Sequence record: PZ445521.1
From: a phage
Direction: 5' to 3' (one strand)
DNA length: 64,000 bases
Part shown: piece after piece, positions 6,844-38,328 of the stretch
Numbering within the stretch: position 1 is the first letter of the stretch
Layout of the letters: the number at the start of each line of letters is the position of its first letter
Notes under the pieces: generated by a model
What the model was told of the DNA's origin: nothing
Seen by the model: only the letters and a program-made list of their open reading frames with translations
The model's database searches: none
Program-made: the position numbers and the translations under genes

Positions 6844-7042
6844 AGCTAAACTTTTTGGCACCCTTCCAGCCTTCATACATCATTGCGGCTGATATTAATA
6901 TTGCTCCTGAGCAACTTGAATATTTGTGATTCCAAAACCAGTTTAGAAAAACTTCATCATCAATACCTTGGGCTATCATATTTTCAAAGAACTGACGACG
7001 AGATTCGGCAATTCGTTGTGATAATTTAGATTCAGGATTCAT
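6842..7042 (-). CDS. hypothetical small protein
   Basis: 66-aa ORF. Confidence 0.45.
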   Translation of the reverse strand: MNPESKLSQRIAESRRQFFENMIAQGIDDEVFLNWFWNHKYSSCSGAILISAAMMYEGWKGAKKFS

Positions 7043-7258
7043 TTAAATTTTCCAGTTACCATTTTCATCAATAAATTTAATCCAGTCATTTACTGACCAC
7101 TTAGTTGTATCGCCTTTTGGAGTAACATTTAAAGTGTATAACCCCTGCTTAAAAAGCATTCGTTTAATATTCATATTTTCCTCAGCTGTAACGATAACAT
7201 TCGTTTGATTTGCGCTTAGCAACCCATTGAGATGTATTATAATCAAAATCATCGTCAA
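7043..7258 (-). CDS. hypothetical small protein
   Basis: 71-aa ORF; overlaps next ORF by 77 nt, true start may be internal Met. Confidence 0.35.
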   Translation of the reverse strand: MTMILIIIHLNGLLSANQTNVIVTAEENMNIKRMLFKQGLYTLNVTPKGDTTKWSVNDWIKFIDENGNWKI

Positions 7259-7514
7259 TGTAAACTGATTTTTTCAACTTTCTTACTTCACCACGCAGTT
7301 GACGATTCAATTCATTCTTAACCTCTGAATCAACACCTCGCATACGTCGCCATTTATCTGAACGAAAAATGTTTTCAACCATATCTTTATGACTTACCCC
7401 ATCAGGAGCTTTACGCTTTCCGAAATAGTCATAATCACGCACTTTTAAGTCTTTACGACGATACGTTTTACCCATGGAGTTTAATTTCCTTAGCAACTGA
7501 ACTAAATGCAGCAC
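7182..7514 (-). CDS. hypothetical basic protein
   Basis: 110-aa ORF rich in Lys/Arg. Confidence 0.45.
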   Translation of the reverse strand: MLHLVQLLRKLNSMGKTYRRKDLKVRDYDYFGKRKAPDGVSHKDMVENIFRSDKWRRMRGVDSEVKNELNRQLRGEVRKLKKSVYIDDDFDYNTSQWVAKRKSNECYRYS

Positions 7515-7650
7515 GATCGCAAATCATGCGTTTATGTAACTTGAGTATAATATAGCAAACTTCAAAACTATTTACATGAGTAACACGAACAGCATTACCA
7601 TTAATGAGATAATACTGTCCCTTTTTAATTTCTTTATCAACCATAACCAT
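7468..7650 (-). CDS. hypothetical small protein
   Basis: 60-aa ORF downstream of early-promoter-like element at 7683..7725. Confidence 0.4.
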   Translation of the reverse strand: MVMVDKEIKKGQYYLINGNAVRVTHVNSFEVCYIILKLHKRMICDRAAFSSVAKEIKLHG

Positions 7651-7682
7651 ATCAATTCCTCAAAGGTAATTCATATGTTAAT

Positions 7683-7725
7683 AATACCACGGTTTGAACT
7701 TGTTGTAAACAACTTTGTGAAAAAT
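7683..7725 (-). promoter_or_regulatory. T4-type early promoter-like element
   Basis: minus-strand GTTTAC -35-like hexamer (7705..7710) with upstream TTTTTCACAAAG block and TATTAT -10-like element about 18 nt downstream. Confidence 0.4.
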
Positions 7726-7791
7726 ATTTTAGGGAATGATAAGAAAGGAACGATAGCTTAGAATGGTAATATACAGAATGTGAGAAAGAAA

Positions 7792-7804
7792 GGCCCAGAG
7801 GGCC
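7792..7804 (-). terminator. intrinsic terminator-like hairpin after nrdH
   Basis: ggccc-aga-gggcc hairpin followed on minus transcript by UUUCUUUCUC. Confidence 0.5.
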
Positions 7805-7808
7805 CGTC

Positions 7809-8102
7809 TTAATCTTCTATGATATCTCTATCATATCCAAGTGAAATGAGAGTTTCTTTGAAGTGTTTAATGTTCTTTTGTCTAGAATCATTAATGAAAA
7901 TGACTGGATAACGAATGTTAAGAGATGTGAATCCAGCGCGTTTAGCAAGAGATACAATCAGTGGACGATCATACTCAATCTTACCATTATTAGTAAGAAC
8001 TTTATAAAAAGTAAAAGGAGCATTGAGCTCCTTTAGAAGTTTTGTAACTGATTGACATCCAGGACAACGACCTACTTCATCTGGAATTCCATAGACTTCA
8101 AT
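7809..8102 (-). CDS. nrdH: NrdH-like glutaredoxin (redoxin for ribonucleotide reductase)
   Basis: CPGC redox motif; ATG-initiated ORF 7809..8261 has a low-complexity N-terminal extension overlapping ORF 8104..8415, so start placed just after that stop; no ATG/GTG there (ATT codon), start uncertain. Confidence 0.55.
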   Translation of the reverse strand: MEVYGIPDEVGRCPGCQSVTKLLKELNAPFTFYKVLTNNGKIEYDRPLIVSLAKRAGFTSLNIRYPVIFINDSRQKNIKHFKETLISLGYDRDIIED

Positions 8103-12154: not shown

Positions 12155-12475
12155 TTATAGCGTAATCCATTCTCGTACTGTCTGAGTTACTACACGTTCA
12201 CGGGGCTCGACTAGTTCAACAGTCGGAACTGCATAATACCAATCAGAATGATAAGAACCTGACCGAGATTCATTTACAGCCACATGTACATTATGTTTTG
12301 GACTAAAGTAAACACACTGACGATATTGACATTTACCATCTTGCACCCAGTCTTCTATTTCGACAGGTTTAAGATAATCGGAAAAATCGAAATCATAGTT
12401 TTCCGAAAATGCATCATGGTCTTCAATGATTTCGCTCAGAACTGCATCAACATCTAATTTATTTTCAATAGTCAT
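12155..12475 (-). CDS. hypothetical protein
   Basis: 106-aa ORF. Confidence 0.5.
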   Translation of the reverse strand: MTIENKLDVDAVLSEIIEDHDAFSENYDFDFSDYLKPVEIEDWVQDGKCQYRQCVYFSPKHNVHVAVNESRSGSYHSDWYYAVPTVELVEPRERVVTQTVREWITL

Positions 12476-13380: not shown

Positions 13381-13770
13381 TTAATCCAAAATATTATTAG
13401 GCATTGGTTGAACACTCACAAGTTCTTTAAAGAACTCAGTAGAGTCAGGCAATTTAACCATTTCCGGAGCATGCTTACTGAATTTATGTTTACATTGACG
13501 GCATTTATATTCAAGCTCTGGTTTACGCCAGTTAATCAACTGAACTTGTTCAGTACCGCATTCAGGGCAATTAGGAACGTTTTTAGAAGCTCTTTCACGT
13601 CGTTCAACCATAGCCATAATAGCATCCCATGCTGGAGGTTTAAAATCTAAATCGTCGCAGCCGTGAATCTTTCCACGCATTTCCATATCATCTTCCTCAC
13701 CAGCCATAATAATTTTAATTAAACTGGAATTACTTGAAGCTGCAATGTCTTCTAATAAACGCTTTTTCAT
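13381..13770 (-). CDS. hypothetical zinc-ribbon protein
   Basis: 129 aa; CPECG...CRQCKH four-Cys ribbon. Confidence 0.55.
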
Positions 13771-14696
13771 TTCAATACCTCAATAGCATTACGTAAACCA
13801 TTTGCTTTTGCATTAAGAGCTTTTAACAATTTGGTGTGTTCTGCAATTTGGGCTTCAACTTCAATCAAACGGGCATTGAGATATTCACGTTCTTCACTCA
13901 GATTATCAACCTTTTCCACTTTAGGCTCTTTTACAACTGTCTTATATGTATTAGGGTTCTTCAGTTTAATTAGAATGCGTGAACTGTATAACATTGAACC
14001 ATTATCTTCGGTTTCGTCATACATTTCCACTACGTCCATAATTTTTAACATCATGCGGAGTTTATAAGACAACGAACGAATAGTTTTGTTGTGCTTATTA
14101 ATTTCTTTAGCTGTCATGGTGCCAAGATTACGTGAGTAATAATAAGGAACCTGGATATTAATTAATACTGATGAACCACCTGGCTTGTGTGTTACTTCAT
14201 CAGCAATAACCCAGTCCTTAACATGAACTGTATTTGTACGGTCATCGCCCGCGGTAAATAGTTTGCGAGCATGCTTAAAAAGCATATTCACTTGGGTATT
14301 GAATTGACAAGCAAATTTATCAGCAAATTTAGTTTCAGGAATGGTAGATAACCAATCAGCCAAATGGGTCTTTTTAACATCGTTAACAATAGTAAATTCA
14401 ACCAAATCGGTTATAGATGTCGCAGTTTTAATGAATCTCGGCTTCATAAAGTTTTCAATGTTATCACGAGCTACAGTAGAAGATAACATACGAGAACGTT
14501 TAAACCATTCAAGCAAATTGCCTAACGAATGAGAATAAGCGTTTTGAGTATCTTTACAGATATGATTTTCCTGGCCAACATATTGAAGGAAATCACGAAG
14601 AATATTATTGATTACTGCTCTGTGTCCTATCTGATAATTACGATGTTTAGTAATAAGACTGTCAAAATAATCAATATAATGTTTACGAGTTTTCAT
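13767..14696 (-). CDS. hypothetical protein, paralog family member 1 (C-terminal coiled coil)
   Basis: 309 aa; N-terminus MKTRKHY; shared W..F..LFKKQ..AS.L-type block and C-terminal heptad-repeat tail. Confidence 0.6.
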   Translation of the reverse strand: MKTRKHYIDYFDSLITKHRNYQIGHRAVINNILRDFLQYVGQENHICKDTQNAYSHSLGNLLEWFKRSRMLSSTVARDNIENFMKPRFIKTATSITDLVEFTIVNDVKKTHLADWLSTIPETKFADKFACQFNTQVNMLFKHARKLFTAGDDRTNTVHVKDWVIADEVTHKPGGSSVLINIQVPYYYSRNLGTMTAKEINKHNKTIRSLSYKLRMMLKIMDVVEMYDETEDNGSMLYSSRILIKLKNPNTYKTVVKEPKVEKVDNLSEEREYLNARLIEVEAQIAEHTKLLKALNAKANGLRNAIEVLK

Positions 14697-14748
14697 GTTC
14701 TTCTCACTTGGTTAATGATTTATACTCCGAGCCATCCTTGGCTTTAAA

Positions 14749-15750
14749 TTACTTAATTAACTGTAAAGCTTGTTCAAGACGATCCAGGCGATTAACAGAT
14801 TCTTCCCAAATCCTTTTAGCCTGCTCATATTCTTTCTGCGCTTTATTAGAAATTTCTAGAACTTCTTTATAAGCTTTTTCTAATGCAATAACTTCTGGAC
14901 GAATTTCTACCGGTTCAGGCGAATCATCAAGATTATCCATTAGTTCCTCAAGGGTAGTTTCTTCTTTAGGAGTATTCACAATTTCATCACATTTTTGTTG
15001 GTAAATTTCTTTATCAGTAGGTGAATAAGCACATTTCACTTCACGAAGACTAATTACAATTTTATATCCTTCCCAGCCGCATATATTCTTAAAAGGATAT
15101 GTATGAATATTTTCTACTGTTTCCATACAAAGTAATGCGGTCTCTAATTGACGAGTTATAGTGCTAGCAATTGAGAAAAATTTATTAATATTCTTTTGGT
15201 TAGTTTCTGGTGTAAAAAATCCATAATTCACAAAAATAGATACTTTATTTTTATCAAGTTCATATTCTTTTATGATAATCATGTCAGAAGCCAAAGGATG
15301 AATTTGACGATAATCACCATAACATAATTTAGAAGCTGATTTTAGAATTTGCTTCTTAAAAAGTCTGAAATTACTAATCCAACGACGAGTAAAAATATTC
15401 TCAGGGTCTTCTTTATTATTAAGATGATAAGAATTAACATCACCGAACCAATTATATCCTACTACATCTTTGGTTCGTTTAATTTCTTTCCCAAAATTAC
15501 CAAGAATATCCCGATTAACCAAATATGAAAGAAGACGAGACTCTTTAAAGGTTTTCTTGATAACATCTTTATCTACACGACTAGAAATTTTACGAATTTC
15601 ATGAATAAATTTAGTAGAAGAAACAATACTTGCATCAACACTATTGAGCCATTGATTGATAATAGAAAGAACGATATTTTGACCAAACATCGGTATAGCT
15701 TTATCATCAATAACGCTATTGAATGATTTGATATATTCGTTACGAGTCAT
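14749..15750 (-). CDS. hypothetical protein, paralog family member 2 (C-terminal coiled coil)
   Basis: ORF 14749..15780; start at second Met (MTRNEYIK) preceded by GAGGAG; 333 aa. Confidence 0.6.
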   Translation of the reverse strand: MTRNEYIKSFNSVIDDKAIPMFGQNIVLSIINQWLNSVDASIVSSTKFIHEIRKISSRVDKDVIKKTFKESRLLSYLVNRDILGNFGKEIKRTKDVVGYNWFGDVNSYHLNNKEDPENIFTRRWISNFRLFKKQILKSASKLCYGDYRQIHPLASDMIIIKEYELDKNKVSIFVNYGFFTPETNQKNINKFFSIASTITRQLETALLCMETVENIHTYPFKNICGWEGYKIVISLREVKCAYSPTDKEIYQQKCDEIVNTPKEETTLEELMDNLDDSPEPVEIRPEVIALEKAYKEVLEISNKAQKEYEQAKRIWEESVNRLDRLEQALQLIK

Positions 15751-15774
15751 ATTAATCTCCTCATTAGAAAGTAA

Positions 15775-15812
15775 GAACATTATACCACATCCTTGTGGCG
15801 AAGTAAACTAGT
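15775..15812 (-). promoter_or_regulatory. T4-type early promoter-like element
   Basis: ATTATACCACA ... AAGTAAAC arrangement closely resembling the element upstream of regB. Confidence 0.4.
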
Positions 15813-16833
15813 TTAGTGCATTTAGTGCATTGTTCAGTTTAGAACGTTGCTTTGTCAGATTTTGAACCCTTGACTGAGCTTGTTCTAACACCTTTTCAGC
15901 TTCTAGCACTTCATTGGTCGCTTTAACGAGTTCATCATCTACTGCCTTAAGAGACTTCTCAATCGCGTCAGCGTGCCATTTTTCTACAGGTTTAAGACTC
16001 GGATTTTCAACAGGAAGAAAATTCACTTTATTGAATTTCCATGCATCATTATTACCTGAACTATACATCCAAAATTTAGAATCGTTTGATGAGTAATTGG
16101 ATAAATTTAAATTTAAGTTATCTTGCACTTCTTGCTTTTTCTCTTGCGGGACTTCGTCCTTTCTCAAAAAATCGTATTTAAATGAAACGATCATATCAAG
16201 TTCATATGTTGTCGTATCTAACTTAAATCGTTCAAAACGAGGTAAAATCTTAGATTGAACAGCAGCAACAACATCCATATACTTAAATGCTTCTGTCAAC
16301 TGTGATTTAAGACATTCACAAATTGAAAGAGAATTTTTAGTATTAGGCTTAAAGCTAATTCGTGCAGTTCTATTATTTTCTTTAGATGGTCTTACTTCCA
16401 TTTGAAGAGTATAACCATCAAATTTCAAATTCTTTAAGTTAATATCAGAACCTTTTAATCGACTAGCAGTAGACAAAATTTGCTTTAATTGTTTACGGAA
16501 TAGAGCAATAAATCTCCATTCAAGACGATAATGATTTGGATTAAAAAATCCTGTTGATAAATCAACCTTACTCTGACCAATGCCTTGAACAAATAGAGGA
16601 TTTTTATAATCAATAGTTTTACAGAAATCGGTGAGCTGCTCACGAGCAGTCATTTGTGTAATATATCCCGCTTTACTAAAATGACGTAACCATTCACTGC
16701 TATTCATATATTTAAAGTGAATATCACGATTAACTTTATCAGGGTCTAAATTATTTTGGCACAAAAATGTCATAACATCACGAGTATAGCTGGCATTACG
16801 AACCATATCTTCAATTTGAGAACGAGTTTTCAT
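15808..16833 (-). CDS. hypothetical protein, paralog family member 3 (C-terminal coiled coil)
   Basis: 341 aa; N-terminus MKTRSQ; EWRFIALFRKQLKQILSTASRL block aligns with members 1, 2 and 4. Confidence 0.6.
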   Translation of the reverse strand: MKTRSQIEDMVRNASYTRDVMTFLCQNNLDPDKVNRDIHFKYMNSSEWLRHFSKAGYITQMTAREQLTDFCKTIDYKNPLFVQGIGQSKVDLSTGFFNPNHYRLEWRFIALFRKQLKQILSTASRLKGSDINLKNLKFDGYTLQMEVRPSKENNRTARISFKPNTKNSLSICECLKSQLTEAFKYMDVVAAVQSKILPRFERFKLDTTTYELDMIVSFKYDFLRKDEVPQEKKQEVQDNLNLNLSNYSSNDSKFWMYSSGNNDAWKFNKVNFLPVENPSLKPVEKWHADAIEKSLKAVDDELVKATNEVLEAEKVLEQAQSRVQNLTKQRSKLNNALNALN

Positions 16834-16841
16834 GGTGTTCC

Positions 16842-17744
16842 TTAAGATTTAAGTAAATCAACAATTTTAATTAACTTTTCACGCTCAGATTTAGCTTTAC
16901 TACTCAATCCAGATAGTCTGAATATTTCATCATCATATTGTTGAATAGAAATATTTAGCTCTTCTATTTGTTTACTGAAATAATCAATCTGCTCGGAATA
17001 TTTTTCATTACTGCGAACTGGTACAGGTTTTGTAGGAAATTTAGTTAAACTGGATTCATCCGGGCGATAAATTAAAATGCAATTTGAACCAATCGGGCAT
17101 TTAGCACCAGATGAATATTCTAACGTTCCAGCTTCTTTTAAAACTTCAAAAGCTAAACAGAGATGATGCCCCATATTAACATAATCTGTAGAGCGAGCTC
17201 TGACGTAATAATCATCGCCGCGAATACTAAATTTAAAGCATTTAAGGTCTTCTGTATTATTGGTCTTAAAAATCATTTGTTTATCTAGACCTTTAGCTAA
17301 TCGAGCGCCTAATGCTAATAATCGTCGTTGATTTTCCCACAAATCCGTAATCATTTGATCGAATGATAATTTAGGCATTAGTCGACCATAAAGGTCATAT
17401 CCTTTATTATAATTGCGAAGGATTTCACTCGCATTAATACGAGACAACGCTCCAATTTTATTAAGGGCTTTCATGATGCGATTAGATAAACCCATTCCAG
17501 ACCCATTTGTTCGTTGTAAATGTTTTTCTAATCCAAATCCAATATCAACTTTAAATTTATCTAAAATTTCAGCATGAACATCTCTGTCAATAACATTCAA
17601 ATCCAAAGTTGGGTTAAATCTATGAAAAAATTTATCTGGCTCTCCACGACGAAGTACAGTCCATTCATTTAATTTTTTATTAACTAAAGATTTAATTACT
17701 GCATTGACATTATTAATTACTACTGACATATTTTTCTCACTCAA
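16842..17744 (-). CDS. hypothetical protein, divergent paralog family member 4 (C-terminal coiled coil)
   Basis: 300 aa; WENQRRLLALGARLAKGL block and C-terminal coiled-coil tail. Confidence 0.55.
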   Translation of the reverse strand: MSEKNMSVVINNVNAVIKSLVNKKLNEWTVLRRGEPDKFFHRFNPTLDLNVIDRDVHAEILDKFKVDIGFGLEKHLQRTNGSGMGLSNRIMKALNKIGALSRINASEILRNYNKGYDLYGRLMPKLSFDQMITDLWENQRRLLALGARLAKGLDKQMIFKTNNTEDLKCFKFSIRGDDYYVRARSTDYVNMGHHLCLAFEVLKEAGTLEYSSGAKCPIGSNCILIYRPDESSLTKFPTKPVPVRSNEKYSEQIDYFSKQIEELNISIQQYDDEIFRLSGLSSKAKSEREKLIKIVDLLKS

Positions 17745-35335: not shown

Positions 35336-35512
35336 TCCGGATAGTTTGTAAACTATTTCAACATCGCCTTTTGCTGCTTTATAACCTTCAGCCCAAGATA
35401 TAACCGAGTTTTTATCTGAAGATTCAAATTCTGGCATTGGGCTTTCGCCAATGTTCACGCAGTATGTTTCTTCATTTTCGTCGAACCAAATAATTAAAGT
35501 AGTCATTTATTT
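35336..35512 (-). CDS. hypothetical small protein (58 aa)
   Basis: Hand-translated ORF MTTLIIWFDENEE...; below ORF-track cutoff. Confidence 0.3.
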
Positions 35513-35574
35513 CTCCGTTTCTGTATTTGTTTTGATAAGTCTATAATAACACCGTCCTTGGTGTTTGTACACAA

Positions 35575-35838
35575 TTATTTCATATTATTGAAATATTCTT
35601 CTGCGATTTCGTCGTTATCATGGTAAACTTTAGAAGACAGTTTAACATAACCTTCAGCAGTGAACATATTAATCACAACCTTTACAGTATACCACTGACC
35701 ATCTTCATTACCCATTACTGCGTAAGTTTCAAACATCGGATGGTCAGGACCGATAACTTTAATATCATTCACTGTACGACCAAAATCTTCTGAAACACAT
35801 TTCATAAAGAAGTTGAACAGTTCGCCGTAATTATCCAT
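35575..35838 (-). CDS. hypothetical protein
   Basis: ORF 35575..35970; start moved to Met45 (MDNYGELF, GGAGAA upstream) because the N-terminal codons read through the promoter-like element. Confidence 0.5.
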   Translation of the reverse strand: MDNYGELFNFFMKCVSEDFGRTVNDIKVIGPDHPMFETYAVMGNEDGQWYTVKVVINMFTAEGYVKLSSKVYHDNDEIAEEYFNNMK

Positions 35839-35869
35839 TTCATTCTCCAAGTTGTTTTTCTGTATCAGT

Positions 35870-35930
35870 AGTTGATAGTTGTATAGTACCATGGAAGAAT
35901 AGGGATGTAAACAGTTTTGTGAAAAATTTT
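35870..35930 (-). promoter_or_regulatory. T4-type early promoter-like element
   Basis: GATAGTTGTATAGTACCATGG block, GTTTAC hexamer (35907..35912), AAAACTGTTTTGTGAAAAATTTTT block. Confidence 0.5.
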
Positions 35931-36040
35931 TTAAAAAGTTTTGGGGGAATTCTAGGGCAGGGAGGGGCAATTAAAGGATAGGATAATATATTATAAAGGA
36001 TAGAAACTAAATGATGCCTAGAGAGGCCCGGAAAGGCCTA

Positions 36041-36064
36041 GATACCAAAAAGCCCCAACCTTTT
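36041..36064 (-). terminator. intrinsic terminator hairpin (copy 1 of near-identical pair)
   Basis: agccccaacc-tttt-ggtcggggct, 10-bp stem with one mismatch, U-run follows on minus transcript. Confidence 0.55.
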
Positions 36065-36081
36065 GGTCGGGGCTAAGAATG

Positions 36082-36555
36082 TTATTTGATTTGTTTAGCA
36101 GACCAAATGCGGTCTTTAATAATTTTTTGGATGTCTTCAACATACTCAAGAGAGTGAGCATGTGGGTTATCTTTGAAACTATAAGCACGAGCTAGCTTTT
36201 GGCCTTCAGTTTTGATTACTAAAAGCTCTTTAAGGATAGCTTCATATTTGGAGATAATTCCTTTAACAATATTTTTCTCTTGTGTAGCTTTAGGATCTGC
36301 TTTAGGAGCAGGTTTACCTGAAGCCTTTGCAAAAGCAGCTCCAGTAGCAACTAAACTTTTCCAGGCCATACTAACTGCATTTCCCGTAAATCCTTCCGCT
36401 TTCATGTCGCGTGCGAACTGGAATCGCGATTCATCAGAAGCATCTTTATAAGAATATTTACCCGCTGCAATGGCTGCTTTTGCGACAGCTTGAATTTCGG
36501 TGCTAGATGCTTCATTTAACACCGCTTCATTTAAAAATTGAGCATATGATTTCAT
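36082..36555 (-). CDS. internal (head-packaged) protein candidate with capsid targeting sequence
   Basis: 157 aa; N-terminus MKSYAQFLNE; Ala/Lys-rich; late-promoter motif upstream. Confidence 0.55.
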   Translation of the reverse strand: MKSYAQFLNEAVLNEASSTEIQAVAKAAIAAGKYSYKDASDESRFQFARDMKAEGFTGNAVSMAWKSLVATGAAFAKASGKPAPKADPKATQEKNIVKGIISKYEAILKELLVIKTEGQKLARAYSFKDNPHAHSLEYVEDIQKIIKDRIWSAKQIK

Positions 36556-36591
36556 CTTATTTCCTGTTTTAATTCGTGGTTTTAATATACT

Positions 36592-36599
36592 TATTTATA
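36592..36599 (-). promoter_or_regulatory. late promoter motif TATAAATA (minus strand)
   Basis: forward tatttata about 40 nt upstream of ORF 36082..36555 start. Confidence 0.45.
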
Positions 36600-36605
36600 C
36601 TAAAA

Positions 36606-36629
36606 AGCCCCAACCTTTCGGTCGGGGCT
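36606..36629 (-). terminator. intrinsic terminator hairpin (copy 2 of near-identical pair)
   Basis: agccccaacc-tttc-ggtcggggct followed by U-run on minus transcript. Confidence 0.55.
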
Positions 36630-36680
36630 AAGCCTTGCGGCAACCTTGTCGGGGTTCCACCTGCTAAGGCAAGTGTTTGT

Positions 36681-36772
36681 ACGAAACGCCGGGATTCGAA
36701 CCCGGTTATTAAGCAGTTGACGCTACTCAATATTTTTAAAAGGCCATATCTCGACCATATCCGAACGTTCCG
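36681..36772 (-). ncRNA. tRNA-like element (possible degenerate tRNA or small stable RNA)
   Basis: 7-bp acceptor-like pairing (cggaacg/cgtttcg) and canonical T-arm ccggg-TTCGAAT-cccgg, but about 44 nt between D-region and T-arm without a recognisable anticodon arm. Confidence 0.3.
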
Positions 36773-36940
36773 TCAAAAACGCTACTCGGCTTACGGCAAA
36801 GATATTTCCTCGAATCGATAATTCGGTGCGCCGTTTCTGCTGTGATATAAGGGGACATTAACAAAACATAAAGATTTATTAATGCCAGTCCTTAAACAGG
36901 GAACATCAGTCCGACGACTTACCGGTAGCGACCCGGTTTC

Positions 36941-37288
36941 TTATTCTGACATATAATAAAGTTGCTCACGTCGTCTACGCCATAAATTAATTGCTTCATG
37001 AGCACATTCAGCGTTCAGGATAGGACGACAATAATATAACGACTCACGTTTTTGGAACCGATGCTGCAATGGGATTTCATTTAAAAGGTCTTTACGATCA
37101 AAGTATTCGTAACCATCTAAACCTACTGAACGATTTTTAATAAACTTCCAATGGCCGAATTCATTCTGAATATAAATGTAATCAGCGTGTTGGTATAATG
37201 CCATAATCTCACGGTCAGAAATAGCTGTTTCATGTTCGTTAAAATAAAACGTTAAATCATGTACTACTAAGTAAACATTACCTTTCAT
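36941..37288 (-). CDS. hypothetical protein
   Basis: 115-aa ORF immediately downstream of tRNA cluster. Confidence 0.5.
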   Translation of the reverse strand: MKGNVYLVVHDLTFYFNEHETAISDREIMALYQHADYIYIQNEFGHWKFIKNRSVGLDGYEYFDRKDLLNEIPLQHRFQKRESLYYCRPILNAECAHEAINLWRRRREQLYYMSE

Positions 37289-37306
37289 ATTTTCCTCACT
37301 TATAAT

Positions 37307-37382
37307 TGGTCGAGGCAGTAGGGATCGAACCTACGACCTAGGACTTAGAAGGTCCTTGCTCTTCCTTCTGAGCTATGCCCCG
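37307..37382 (-). tRNA. tRNA-Arg (anticodon UCU)
   Basis: Hand-folded cloverleaf: acceptor cggggca/tgcctcg, D-arm TAGCTCAG, anticodon loop cu-UCU-aa, T-arm GGTTCGATCC, encoded CCA. Confidence 0.8.
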
Positions 37383-37386
37383 TAAT

Positions 37387-37462
37387 TGGGGTGACCGATG
37401 GGAGTCGAACCCATGACTACGAGAATCACAATCTCGAGTTCTACCAACTGAACTACGGCCAC
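37387..37462 (-). tRNA. tRNA-His (anticodon GUG)
   Basis: Cloverleaf: anticodon stem cgaga/tctcg, loop uu-GUG-au, T-arm atggg-TTCGACT-cccat, discriminator C, encoded CCA; no encoded G-1. Confidence 0.65.
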
Positions 37463-37576
37463 ATTAATACCTACTCCAACAATCAAGATGTCTTCACACG
37501 AAATTAAGAGAAGAGTGATCAGTTCAACCCCTATAATCGCGTCAAGTAGATATTAATGTGACAGTTGTCACAAATT

Positions 37577-37651
37577 TGGCGGACGTGATAGGATTCGAAC
37601 CTATAACCAATCGCTTAACAGGCGATCGCTCTACCATTGAGCTACACATCC
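37577..37651 (-). tRNA. tRNA-Asn (anticodon GUU)
   Basis: Cloverleaf: anticodon stem atcgc/gcgat, loop cu-GUU-aa, T-arm atagg-TTCGAAT-cctat, encoded CCA. Confidence 0.65.
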
Positions 37652-37655
37652 AAAT

Positions 37656-37742
37656 TGGTGGGGAGTGGTGGAGTCGAACCACCCGAGTCGCAATGACAAT
37701 GAATTTACAGTCCACACCGCTACCTCTACGGGATAACTCCCC
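37656..37742 (-). tRNA. tRNA-Tyr (anticodon GUA), long variable arm
   Basis: 87 nt; anticodon loop cu-GUA-aa, T-arm ggtgg-TTCGACT-ccacc, acceptor ggggagt/actcccc, encoded CCA. Confidence 0.6.
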
Positions 37743-37754
37743 TAATTCATAATT

Positions 37755-37829
37755 TGGTGGCCCTGGGTGGAATTGAACCACCATCTGGCGATTATGAGTC
37801 GCTTGCTTGAACCTTCCAGCTACAGGGCC
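37755..37829 (-). tRNA. tRNA with CAU anticodon (Ile2 or Met)
   Basis: anticodon loop cu-CAU-aa, T-arm ggtgg-TTCAATT-ccacc, acceptor ggccctg/cagggcc, encoded CCA; Ile/Met identity undetermined. Confidence 0.65.
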
Positions 37830-37830
37830 T

Positions 37831-37906
37831 TGGTGCTGATTGACGGAATCGAACCGCCGACGTCCTCATTACAAGTGAGTTGCTCTACCTACTGAGCTAA
37901 ATCAGC
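37831..37906 (-). tRNA. tRNA-Thr (anticodon UGU)
   Basis: anticodon loop cu-UGU-aa, D-arm TAGCTCAGTAGGTAGAGC, T-loop TTCGATT, encoded CCA. Confidence 0.75.
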
Positions 37907-37912
37907 AAAAAC

Positions 37913-38002
37913 TGGCGGAGGCGATAGGATTTGAACCTATGAGTCGCCGGAGCGACTGCCGGTTTTCAAGACCGGTGCATTAAACCACTCTGCCACGCCT
38001 CC
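37913..38002 (-). tRNA. tRNA-Ser (anticodon UGA), long variable arm
   Basis: 90 nt; anticodon stem ccggt/accgg, loop cu-UGA-aa, long variable arm, T-arm atagg-TTCAAAT-cctat. Confidence 0.75.
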
Positions 38003-38004
38003 AG

Positions 38005-38078
38005 TCTCCATACAAGGATTTGAACCTTGGACCTCCTGATCCCAAATCAGGCGCTCTACCAAACTGAGCTACACGGAG
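38005..38078 (-). tRNA. tRNA-Pro (anticodon UGG), CCA not encoded
   Basis: anticodon stem cctga/tcagg, loop uu-UGG-ga, T-arm caagg-TTCAAAT-ccttg; 3' terminus lacks CCA. Confidence 0.75.
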
Positions 38079-38088
38079 TAAATTAAAT

Positions 38089-38162
<74 letters not shown>

Positions 38163-38167
38163 AAATT

Positions 38168-38254
38168 TGGTGCGAGAAGTGGGACTCGAACCCACAAGGA
38201 AATCATTCCGCAGCATTTTAAGTGCTGTGCCTTTACCAATTTGACCATTCTCGC
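38168..38254 (-). tRNA. tRNA-Leu (anticodon UAA), long variable arm
   Basis: 87 nt; anticodon stem cagca/tgctg, loop cu-UAA-aa, T-arm gtggg-TTCGAGT-cccac, encoded CCA. Confidence 0.75.
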
Positions 38255-38255
38255 G

Positions 38256-38328
38256 CTGGGAATAAAGGACTCGAACCTTTGCATCCTGGAATCAAAATCC
38301 AGTGCCTTACCAACTTGGCTAATTCCCA
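38256..38328 (-). tRNA. tRNA-Gln (anticodon UUG), CCA not encoded
   Basis: acceptor tgggaat/attccca, anticodon stem ctgga/tccag, loop uu-UUG-au, T-loop TTCGAGT; 3' end abuts tRNA-Leu. Confidence 0.75.

Follow-up and report, generated by a model that had tools for sequence, protein, structure and literature searches.

A deletion mutant of phage T4 is unable to plate on ECOR17 owing to the SIR2-domain defense Dsr1, and expression in trans of nrdC.5, called an early gene, restores plating of the mutant on Dsr1 cells (Srikant et al., eLife 2022, PMC9391042). In a 64,000-nucleotide stretch of phage DNA (sequence record PZ445521.1; hereafter the window), the orthologue of T4 nrdC.5 lies in an array of four adjoining genes, nrdC.3, nrdC.4, nrdC.5, and nrdC.6, the other three being remote paralogs of it. 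Here, we establish the common ancestry of the four and consider what it implies for the three that lack a published phenotype.

The sensor of Dsr1 is reported to be a TPR domain shared with Avs7 and triggered by the phage major capsid protein (2026 preprint, PMC12803255). A further phage inhibitor, DSAD1 of phage SPbeta, inhibits DSR2 by binding its C-terminal sensor domain (PMC10973363, PMC10981675). The likeness of the array to DSAD1 lies in the proposed logic, in which a phage protein occupies the sensor of a SIR2 NADase that otherwise recognizes a virion protein; no sequence or fold relationship of nrdC.3-6 to DSAD1 was found. The anti-defense islands of T-even phages, dmd-tifA-adfA (PMC9391042) and the pin-gp49.2 region (PMC13096335), likewise consist of small to medium-sized dispensable genes, some of them early. 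In both cases, each member of known function disables a single host system, and the locus readily undergoes deletion, amplification, and recombination. Unlike these islands, which bring together unrelated inhibitors, nrdC.3-6 consists of four mutual paralogs and represents the expansion of one family.

The window DNA is that of Shigella phage JK38 (MK962755), a Tequatrovirus, with 100% identity across the 3,978-bp array region; to hundreds of Tequatroviruses, this region is 91-97% identical at the DNA level. A preliminary description, made from the sequence alone, had pointed to four adjacent paralogous minus-strand genes with C-terminal coiled coils, and the list of open reading frames (ORFs) indeed contains four adjoining minus-strand frames at 13767-14696, 14749-15780, 15808-16833, and 16842-17744. 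Alignment to the annotated T4T genome, the proposed check for T4 nrdC.x counterparts, identifies them as exactly nrdC.3, nrdC.4, nrdC.5, and nrdC.6, flanked by nrdC.2 and nrdC.7 inside the nrdC-mobD block, with all four on the minus strand.

Relationship among the four protein families

Databases hold the four genes in three families: phrog_1435/PF26897 (nrdC.3 and nrdC.4), phrog_2351/PF23882 (DUF7235; nrdC.5), and phrog_2257/PF26899 (nrdC.6). Full-length profile matches assign nrdC.3 and nrdC.4 to phrog_1435 and nrdC.6 to phrog_2257, all nrdC.4 homologues carry PF26897, and all nrdC.6 homologues carry PF26899. Only nrdC.5 matches PF23882 over its full length above the gathering score; nrdC.3, nrdC.4, and nrdC.6 do not match it at E <= 1 and are about 14-22% identical to nrdC.5. 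Pairwise BLAST links nrdC.3 and nrdC.4 (E 5e-8, 26% identity over 226 residues), with the other five of the six pairs non-significant. Both the BLAST result and the three separate database families would be compatible with an artefact in which coiled-coil composition makes four unrelated neighbors look similar.

Profile-profile comparison argues against such an artefact. We constructed profiles from non-redundant alignments of the homologues collected and the orthologous loci of RB69, VR26, E33, and others; the relatives of the four-sequence nrdC.5 alignment, from the locus search, were mostly Tequatro-, Gapriver-, and Dhakaviruses. With hhalign, nrdC.3 and nrdC.4 align at E 6.5e-14 over their full length and at 6.9e-14 with the C-terminal tails removed. 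The corresponding pairs of values are 4e-5 and 3e-4 for nrdC.3+4 with nrdC.5, 8e-4 and 2.4e-4 for nrdC.4 with nrdC.5, 1e-3 and 8e-4 for nrdC.4 with nrdC.6, and 8e-3 and 4e-3 for nrdC.5 with nrdC.6. All of these alignments are collinear and near full length, and reversed-template controls for these first profiles gave P 0.15-0.8 (0.15-0.7 for the reversed nulls of the tail-free matches of nrdC.4 to nrdC.5 and nrdC.6).

An initial shallow hhalign comparison and local jackhmmer had left the families unmerged; this required more distant relatives, which we took from a full HMMER scan and added to the family alignments to obtain extended profiles. These link nrdC.3/4 to nrdC.5 at E 1.2e-10 (probability 97%), nrdC.5 to nrdC.6 at E 1.3e-9 (96%), and nrdC.3/4 to nrdC.6 at E 1e-5 (82%), as compared to E 0.2-0.8 for the reversed controls. 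Several distant members bridge the families. Two proteins, P0232 and P0233, match the hidden Markov models (HMMs) of both nrdC.6 (1e-16) and nrdC.5 (1e-8), core domain included, and a third, P0238, matches those of nrdC.5 (9e-11), nrdC.4 (3e-8), and nrdC.3 (4e-5). Leaving out P0238 still yields 7.7e-6 between nrdC.3/4 and nrdC.5 and 1.4e-7 between nrdC.5 and nrdC.6. Together with the agreement of predicted structures described below, these results contradict a composition artefact, which we regard as highly improbable.

A plain MAFFT alignment of the four families (hereafter A5) brings three blocks and the C-terminal ending into register. Motif 1, F/L-x-K-x-G/S-x-L/I-S/T...A-R/S-E/D-x-L/I-x-x-F/Y-x-K, takes the forms FKxSRLLS..V.RD.L..F.K, FSKAGYITQMTAREQLTDFCK, and LNKIGALSRINASEILRNYNK. 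Motif 2 corresponds to the internal block previously noticed in the four genes, which is real and turns out to be the best-conserved part of a similarity that is collinear over nearly the whole proteins (DKFACQFNTQVNMLFKHARKL in nrdC.3, RRWISNFRLFKKQILKSASKL in nrdC.4, EWRFIALFRKQLKQILSTASRL in nrdC.5, and ITDLWENQRRLLALGARLAKG in nrdC.6). The helix of motif 3 ends in M(D/E)(V/T)VE in nrdC.3 and nrdC.4, MDVVA in nrdC.5, and LKEAG in nrdC.6, and the C-terminal ending reads L..A/I.x.L/I-K/N. In a full HMMER search of 1.84 billion representative proteins, the A5 profile found 28 proteins at E <= 1e-3; the superfamily is therefore narrow.

The heptad-repeat tail ascribed to each protein is likewise present. 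The terminal 44-57 residues of each contain at most one Pro or Gly and display hydrophobic periodicity at 3.5 residues when compared with shuffles of the same segment; in nrdC.5, the a/d occupancy score is 0.84 against a shuffle maximum of 0.70. A heptad helix of at least 40 residues ending L-x-x-A/I-hydrophobic-x-hydrophobic-L/I-K/N is found in all four families, although weakly in nrdC.3. The last ~30 residues of the nrdC.3 tail are ~77% identical between two alleles that share 37-60% across the center of the protein.

AlphaFold2 models, computed from separate, family-specific alignments, were obtained for nrdC.4 (mean predicted local distance difference test score 82.3, predicted template modeling score 0.68) and nrdC.6 (79.6 and 0.66). 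Both models display the same order of elements: an N-terminal helical bundle, the motif-1 helix pair, and a helix-helix-short-helix unit (motif 2), followed by a beta hairpin, a long helix (motif 3), a second hairpin, a low-confidence linker, and long C-terminal helices. Only the nrdC.4 model has an additional three-stranded insert after the motif-1 helix pair. Secondary structure agrees between the two at 66% of 263 A5 columns, as compared to 43 +/- 5.5% for a shifted null (maximum 58%). The predicted architecture of nrdC.4 and nrdC.6 thus comprises an N-terminal helical bundle, an alpha/beta core that two conserved helical motifs hold together, a disordered linker, and an amphipathic heptad helix, and alignment suggests that nrdC.3 and nrdC.5 would have the same layout.

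A Foldseek search of BFVD with the nrdC.4 model, the type of comparison that had been proposed, retrieves an nrdC.3-like protein (7.6e-8) and nrdC.6 of phage JS10 (4.9e-5). It also retrieves uncharacterized proteins of 300-370 amino acids (aa) at E <= 2.2e-4 from T4-like phages of Pectobacterium, Enterobacter, Klebsiella, Erwinia, Serratia, Yersinia, and Acinetobacter, with a weaker match in Aeromonas phage Aeh1 (E 1.1e-2). Structure matches of the nrdC.6 model are dominated by generic helical hairpins fitting its tail. Sequence searches of the PDB identified no chain related to the four proteins. We also noted a resemblance to the lambda gpU fold of phage tail terminator and tail completion proteins (Z < 8, identity 4-14%), which the nrdC.6 model did not reproduce. 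This would be a fold resemblance at most and is unconfirmed; in contrast to tail terminators, nrdC.3-6 are early, non-virion genes.

The paralogy of the four genes, previously suggested from sequence features, is thus confirmed by both profile and structural evidence. As ORFs, the four have long been annotated in T4, and the phenotype of nrdC.5 is published. Their unification into one superfamily looks new, given that both Pfam and PHROGs treat them as three families with no relation to one another.

Variability and copy number of the array

We compared the window with eight Tequatrovirus loci. The proteins encoded by the flanking genes nrdC, nrdC.1, nrdC.8, nrdC.9, and nrdC.10 are nearly always 99-100% identical to those of the window (lowest 95%). 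By contrast, nrdC.3 is 60% identical in one group of loci and 94-98% in another; nrdC.4 is 91-99% identical, absent, or split by a frameshift; nrdC.5 is 89-95% identical or absent; and nrdC.6 is 93-97% identical. Hence, the array departs from a set of ordinary conserved T4 ORFs in its alleles, gene losses, and frameshift. Pairwise ratios of nonsynonymous to synonymous divergence (dN/dS) are 0.04-0.39 for nrdC.3-6 (0.07-0.15 for nrdC.6), as compared to 0-0.1 in most flank comparisons, a 2-5 fold elevation. Within Tequatroviruses, variability peaks at residues ~20-60 and ~180-280, at the same places in nrdC.4, nrdC.5, and nrdC.6, whose motif 1-2 core and tail are nearly invariant.

Two alleles of nrdC.3 can be distinguished, that of the window being 59-61% identical to T4 nrdC.3 and 94-98% identical to those of other Tequatroviruses. 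Identity to T4 is ~90% over its first ~60 residues and only 37-60% over residues ~60-270, but the center of the protein is ~87-90% identical to RB69. Synonymous divergence (dS) from the T4-type allele is ~1.0, as compared to ~0.1 for neighboring genes. This mosaic of identity, combined with the high dS, suggests that recombination has exchanged the central domain of the JK38 allele.

Gene content varies as well, from one copy (Klebsiella and Enterobacter phages) up to four (Tequatrovirus). All four genes are intact in most of ~460-500 Tequatrovirus records. Phage SYGD1 has nrdC.3 and nrdC.6 only, and phage G10400 is without nrdC.4. In RB69, nrdC.3 and nrdC.6 accompany a very divergent nrdC.5. 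Gapriver- and Dhakaviruses lack nrdC.3 but carry the other three genes; Klebsiella phage Marfa and Enterobacter phage IME523 each have one member, located at this same site. None of the four is as conserved or as widespread as nrdC.6, found in 742 phage records. In Acinetobacter phage Acj61, two tandem proteins of 304-330 aa adjoin nrdC (35452-37472, minus strand). One of them, Acj61p120, matches the superfamily profile (HMM E 2e-9, hhalign probability 91%), and Acj61p121 matches by fold only (Foldseek E 1.2e-5). The position of these members beside nrdC indicates that the family and its location are older than the split between Tevenvirinae and Twarogvirinae. The presence of one to four copies at a fixed locus across Straboviridae, together with mosaic allele structure, appears to be a new observation.

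Several records display altered forms of these genes. Shigella phage Sf25 carries an 83-aa internal tandem duplication in nrdC.6, another relative (P0056) is an in-frame nrdC.5::nrdC.3 fusion with nrdC.4 deleted, and a third (P0244) has an unrelated 115-aa N-terminus joined to the nrdC.5 tail. These forms suggest frequent rearrangement at the locus. In IMGVR_UViG_2974742932, nrdC.4 consists of two overlapping ORFs (6889-7921, plus strand), suggesting a frameshift or pseudogene, in a locus with three intact paralogs. The gene annotated as nrdC.5 in RB69 (AY303349, 9071-9973, minus strand) has a C-terminus unrelated to the family, and the conserved tail (...LQYSKLFNAMNALKS*) is encoded in another frame just downstream. 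Either the gene is frameshifted or a pseudogene, or the old record contains an error. In Gapriver- and Dhakaviruses, an extra ORF of 71 aa lies between nrdC.6 and nrdC.5, overlapping the nrdC.5 start (L005 5733-5948 and L006 5724-5939, plus strand).

Possible roles of the array proteins

No enzymatic motif had been noticed in the four proteins, and further searches agree. A5 contains no invariant column, its near-invariant columns are hydrophobic only (L, A, I), and no polar residue is invariant. Pfam and NCBIfam give no other family match above curated cutoffs, and PADLOC gives one weak hit in a tail. A match of nrdC.3 residues 30-88 to the N-terminal SAM-like domain of tyrosine recombinases was rejected (13.8 vs 22.3 bits in Pfam, 19.2 vs 279 in NCBIfam); this and the other sub-threshold matches, to a BrxC tail, a PgrA surface-exclusion domain, and a PHL domain, are attributable to chance or coiled coil. 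With neither an invariant polar residue nor an enzymatic domain, a binding role is far more likely than a catalytic one, and the nrdC.3-6 products are probably binding proteins rather than enzymes.

The function of the array had been left open. For nrdC.5 this does not hold, given the published anti-Dsr1 phenotype of its T4 orthologue; the JK38 protein is 93.7% identical to T4T nrdC.5. Because one paralog is a published defense inhibitor, the other three are good candidates to act against other bacterial defenses. The suggestion that the array is an arms-race locus gains support from the nrdC.5 phenotype, from the nearby gp49.2 as a published OLD inhibitor, from the variability of the four genes against nearly invariant flanks, from gene loss and a copy number ranging from one to four, and from the mosaic nrdC.3.

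We therefore favor, with moderate confidence, an explanation in which the four genes are diverged tandem duplicates of one ancestral gene located beside nrdC in T4-like phages and encode early, non-enzymatic binding proteins, each neutralizing a different host defense protein or variant. Their products, probably expressed early given an early-type promoter at nrdC.4 and the description of nrdC.5 as an early gene (PMC9391042), would be oligomerizing inhibitors on a conserved scaffold. Variable surfaces (residues ~20-60 and ~180-280) would provide specificity, each for a different host defense protein, and the tail would serve for oligomerization or docking. The inhibitor would act stoichiometrically, by binding the part of the defense protein that serves as its sensor. 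By analogy to DSAD1 and DSR2, NrdC.5 may block Dsr1 by direct binding to its TPR sensor, such that the capsid protein would be unable to switch the NADase on. By extension from nrdC.5, nrdC.3, nrdC.4, and nrdC.6 may also be counter-defense factors.

Some points weigh against this explanation. In the literature, we found nothing on nrdC.3, nrdC.4, or nrdC.6, leaving nrdC.5 as the only member with an experimental phenotype, and no physical interaction between NrdC.5 and Dsr1 is reported in the literature examined. Our models are those of nrdC.4 and nrdC.6 only. Gene-wide dN/dS values are raised yet below 1, and positive selection is not demonstrated.

An alternative, to which we assign a minor but appreciable probability, is that nrdC.5 alone acts in counter-defense, with nrdC.3, nrdC.4, and nrdC.6 retaining the fold for some other dispensable early function, for example directed at a host housekeeping protein, or drifting to loss. 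The absence of published phenotypes for these three genes and the loss or frameshifting of nrdC.4 in some phages would fit this alternative, and the breadth and conservation of nrdC.6 would fit a more general role. Against this alternative stand the intactness of all four genes in most Tequatrovirus records and dN/dS well below 1, which indicates that nrdC.3-6 are under selection. The coincidence of variable positions in nrdC.4, nrdC.5, and nrdC.6 and the position of the genes amid others known to interfere with the host (Pin, gp49.2, and nrdC.5) also speak against it.

The related C-terminal coiled coils could alternatively assemble the four proteins into one hetero-oligomeric complex with a single function, and the tails do end in a common motif (e.g., LIKIVDLLKS) that is more conserved than the bodies. 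Yet nrdC.5 alone in trans restored plating of the T4 deletion mutant (PMC9391042, where the extent of the "evo 3" deletion is not stated), and natural phages carry one, two, three, or four members in differing combinations; we consider such a complex improbable. Beyond our favored explanation of separate early inhibitors, a more speculative possibility, which we think rather unlikely as a whole, is that the array forms a modular "anti-sensor" set. Here, scaffold and coiled-coil tail would carry swappable surfaces, each plugging the TPR capsid sensor of a different receptor of the Dsr1/Avs7 family or another pattern-recognition defense. If true, a small recombining phage repertoire would face a diversified host receptor family, as a viral counterpart of receptor diversification.

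Gene starts, surroundings, and significance of the array

Coordinates are collected in Table 1. Of the frames first given, those of nrdC.4 and nrdC.6 begin too far upstream. For nrdC.6, we place the start at the ATG matching the T4 annotation (MSVVINN). For nrdC.4, a T4-early-type promoter (GTTTACTT...TGGTATAAT) ends at 15779, which puts ATG 15780 within the -10 element; the real start is hence ATG 15750 (MTRNEY), preceded by GAGGAG downstream of the promoter. The N-termini MKTR (nrdC.3 and nrdC.5) and MTR (nrdC.4) are as first described. In many GenBank records, genes from nrdC.3 to nrdC.7 are called "thioredoxin," and in one, "Mur ligase domain-containing protein." No such domains are detectable with Pfam, so the labels are spurious or carried over, and they appear to be annotation errors propagated from the gene name nrdC.

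Table 1. Features of the array and other features of the window (window coordinates)
Feature	Position	Strand	Basis or remark
nrdC.3 homologue, 309 aa	13767..14696	-	phrog_1435 E 6.8e-116, T4 annotation; recombinant allele
nrdC.4 homologue, 333 aa from corrected ATG 15750	14749..15750	-	phrog_1435 E 9.2e-169
nrdC.5 homologue, 341 aa, Pfam DUF7235	15808..16833	-	PF23882 403 bits vs cutoff 30, E 1.2e-120
nrdC.6 homologue, 295 aa from corrected ATG 17729	16842..17729	-	phrog_2257 E 2.5e-151
Motif 1, nrdC.3	14442..14504	-	A5
Motif 1, nrdC.4	15487..15549	-	A5
Motif 1, nrdC.5	16618..16680	-	A5
Motif 1, nrdC.6	17403..17465	-	A5
Motif 2 (shared internal block), nrdC.3	14241..14321	-	A5
Motif 2, nrdC.4	15310..15387	-	A5 columns
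Motif 2, nrdC.5	16441..16521	-	A5
Motif 2, nrdC.6	17283..17354	-	A5
Heptad helix, nrdC.3 residues 266-309	13770..13901	-	p = 0.04 (weak); ends LRNAIEVLK
Heptad helix, nrdC.4 residues 285-333	14752..14898	-	p = 2e-4; AlphaFold single helix 285-332
Heptad helix, nrdC.5 residues 285-341	15811..15981	-	p = 2e-4, best period 3.50
Heptad helices, nrdC.6 residues 241-295	16845..17009	-	p = 2e-3; AlphaFold helices 242-271, 277-294
T4-early-type promoter, 17-nt spacer, TG-extended TATAAT	15779..15807	-	Consensus match only; just upstream of nrdC.4
gp49.2 homologue	12155..12475	-	96-98% identical to T4-type proteins
nrdC.2, 129 aa	13381..13770	-	Two CxxC pairs
Spacer upstream of nrdC.3, 52 nt	14697..14748	-	Contains TATAAATC
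Weak hairpin in the same spacer	14727..14741
11 tRNA genes	37307..38328	-	Arg, His, Asn, Tyr, Met(CAT), Thr, Ser, Pro, Gly, Leu, Gln

The T4 annotation places Pin, an inhibitor of Lon, among the neighboring genes, and the window carries a homologue of gp49.2, which in T6 is an inhibitor of the OLD defense nuclease (PMC13096335). Given the published role of gp49.2, the stretch from pin to nrdC.6 looks like an anti-defense island. The adjacent nrdC.2 product, 104 aa in T4, is longer in the window, and its cysteine pairs look like a zinc ribbon; among Tequatroviruses it varies between 61 and 100% identity, with coverage often only ~77%. In the spacer upstream of nrdC.3, TATAAATC is near the T4 late-promoter consensus TATAAATA.

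Elsewhere in the window, a cluster of tRNA genes explains a bump in GC content at 36-38 kb. T4 itself has 8 tRNA genes. Ten of those in the window are found by Rfam at its gathering score, which misses the tRNA-Tyr found by ARAGORN.

The paralogy established here turns nrdC.3, nrdC.4, and nrdC.6 into specific candidates for new counter-defense factors related to nrdC.5, a known but mechanistically uncharacterized inhibitor of the Dsr1 NADase. A conserved scaffold that can be separated from the variable regions should help to map specificity, and nature supplies alleles and domain-swapped variants for direct comparison, the two forms of nrdC.3 among them. We see this prediction, which appears to be new, as a useful, testable lead rather than a surprise. 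T4-like phages infecting Enterobacterales and Acinetobacter carry the family at one locus, in one to four copies; its role, whatever it may be, is therefore a general feature of host-range determination in Straboviridae, which is relevant to phage-therapy cocktails made from T4-like phages.

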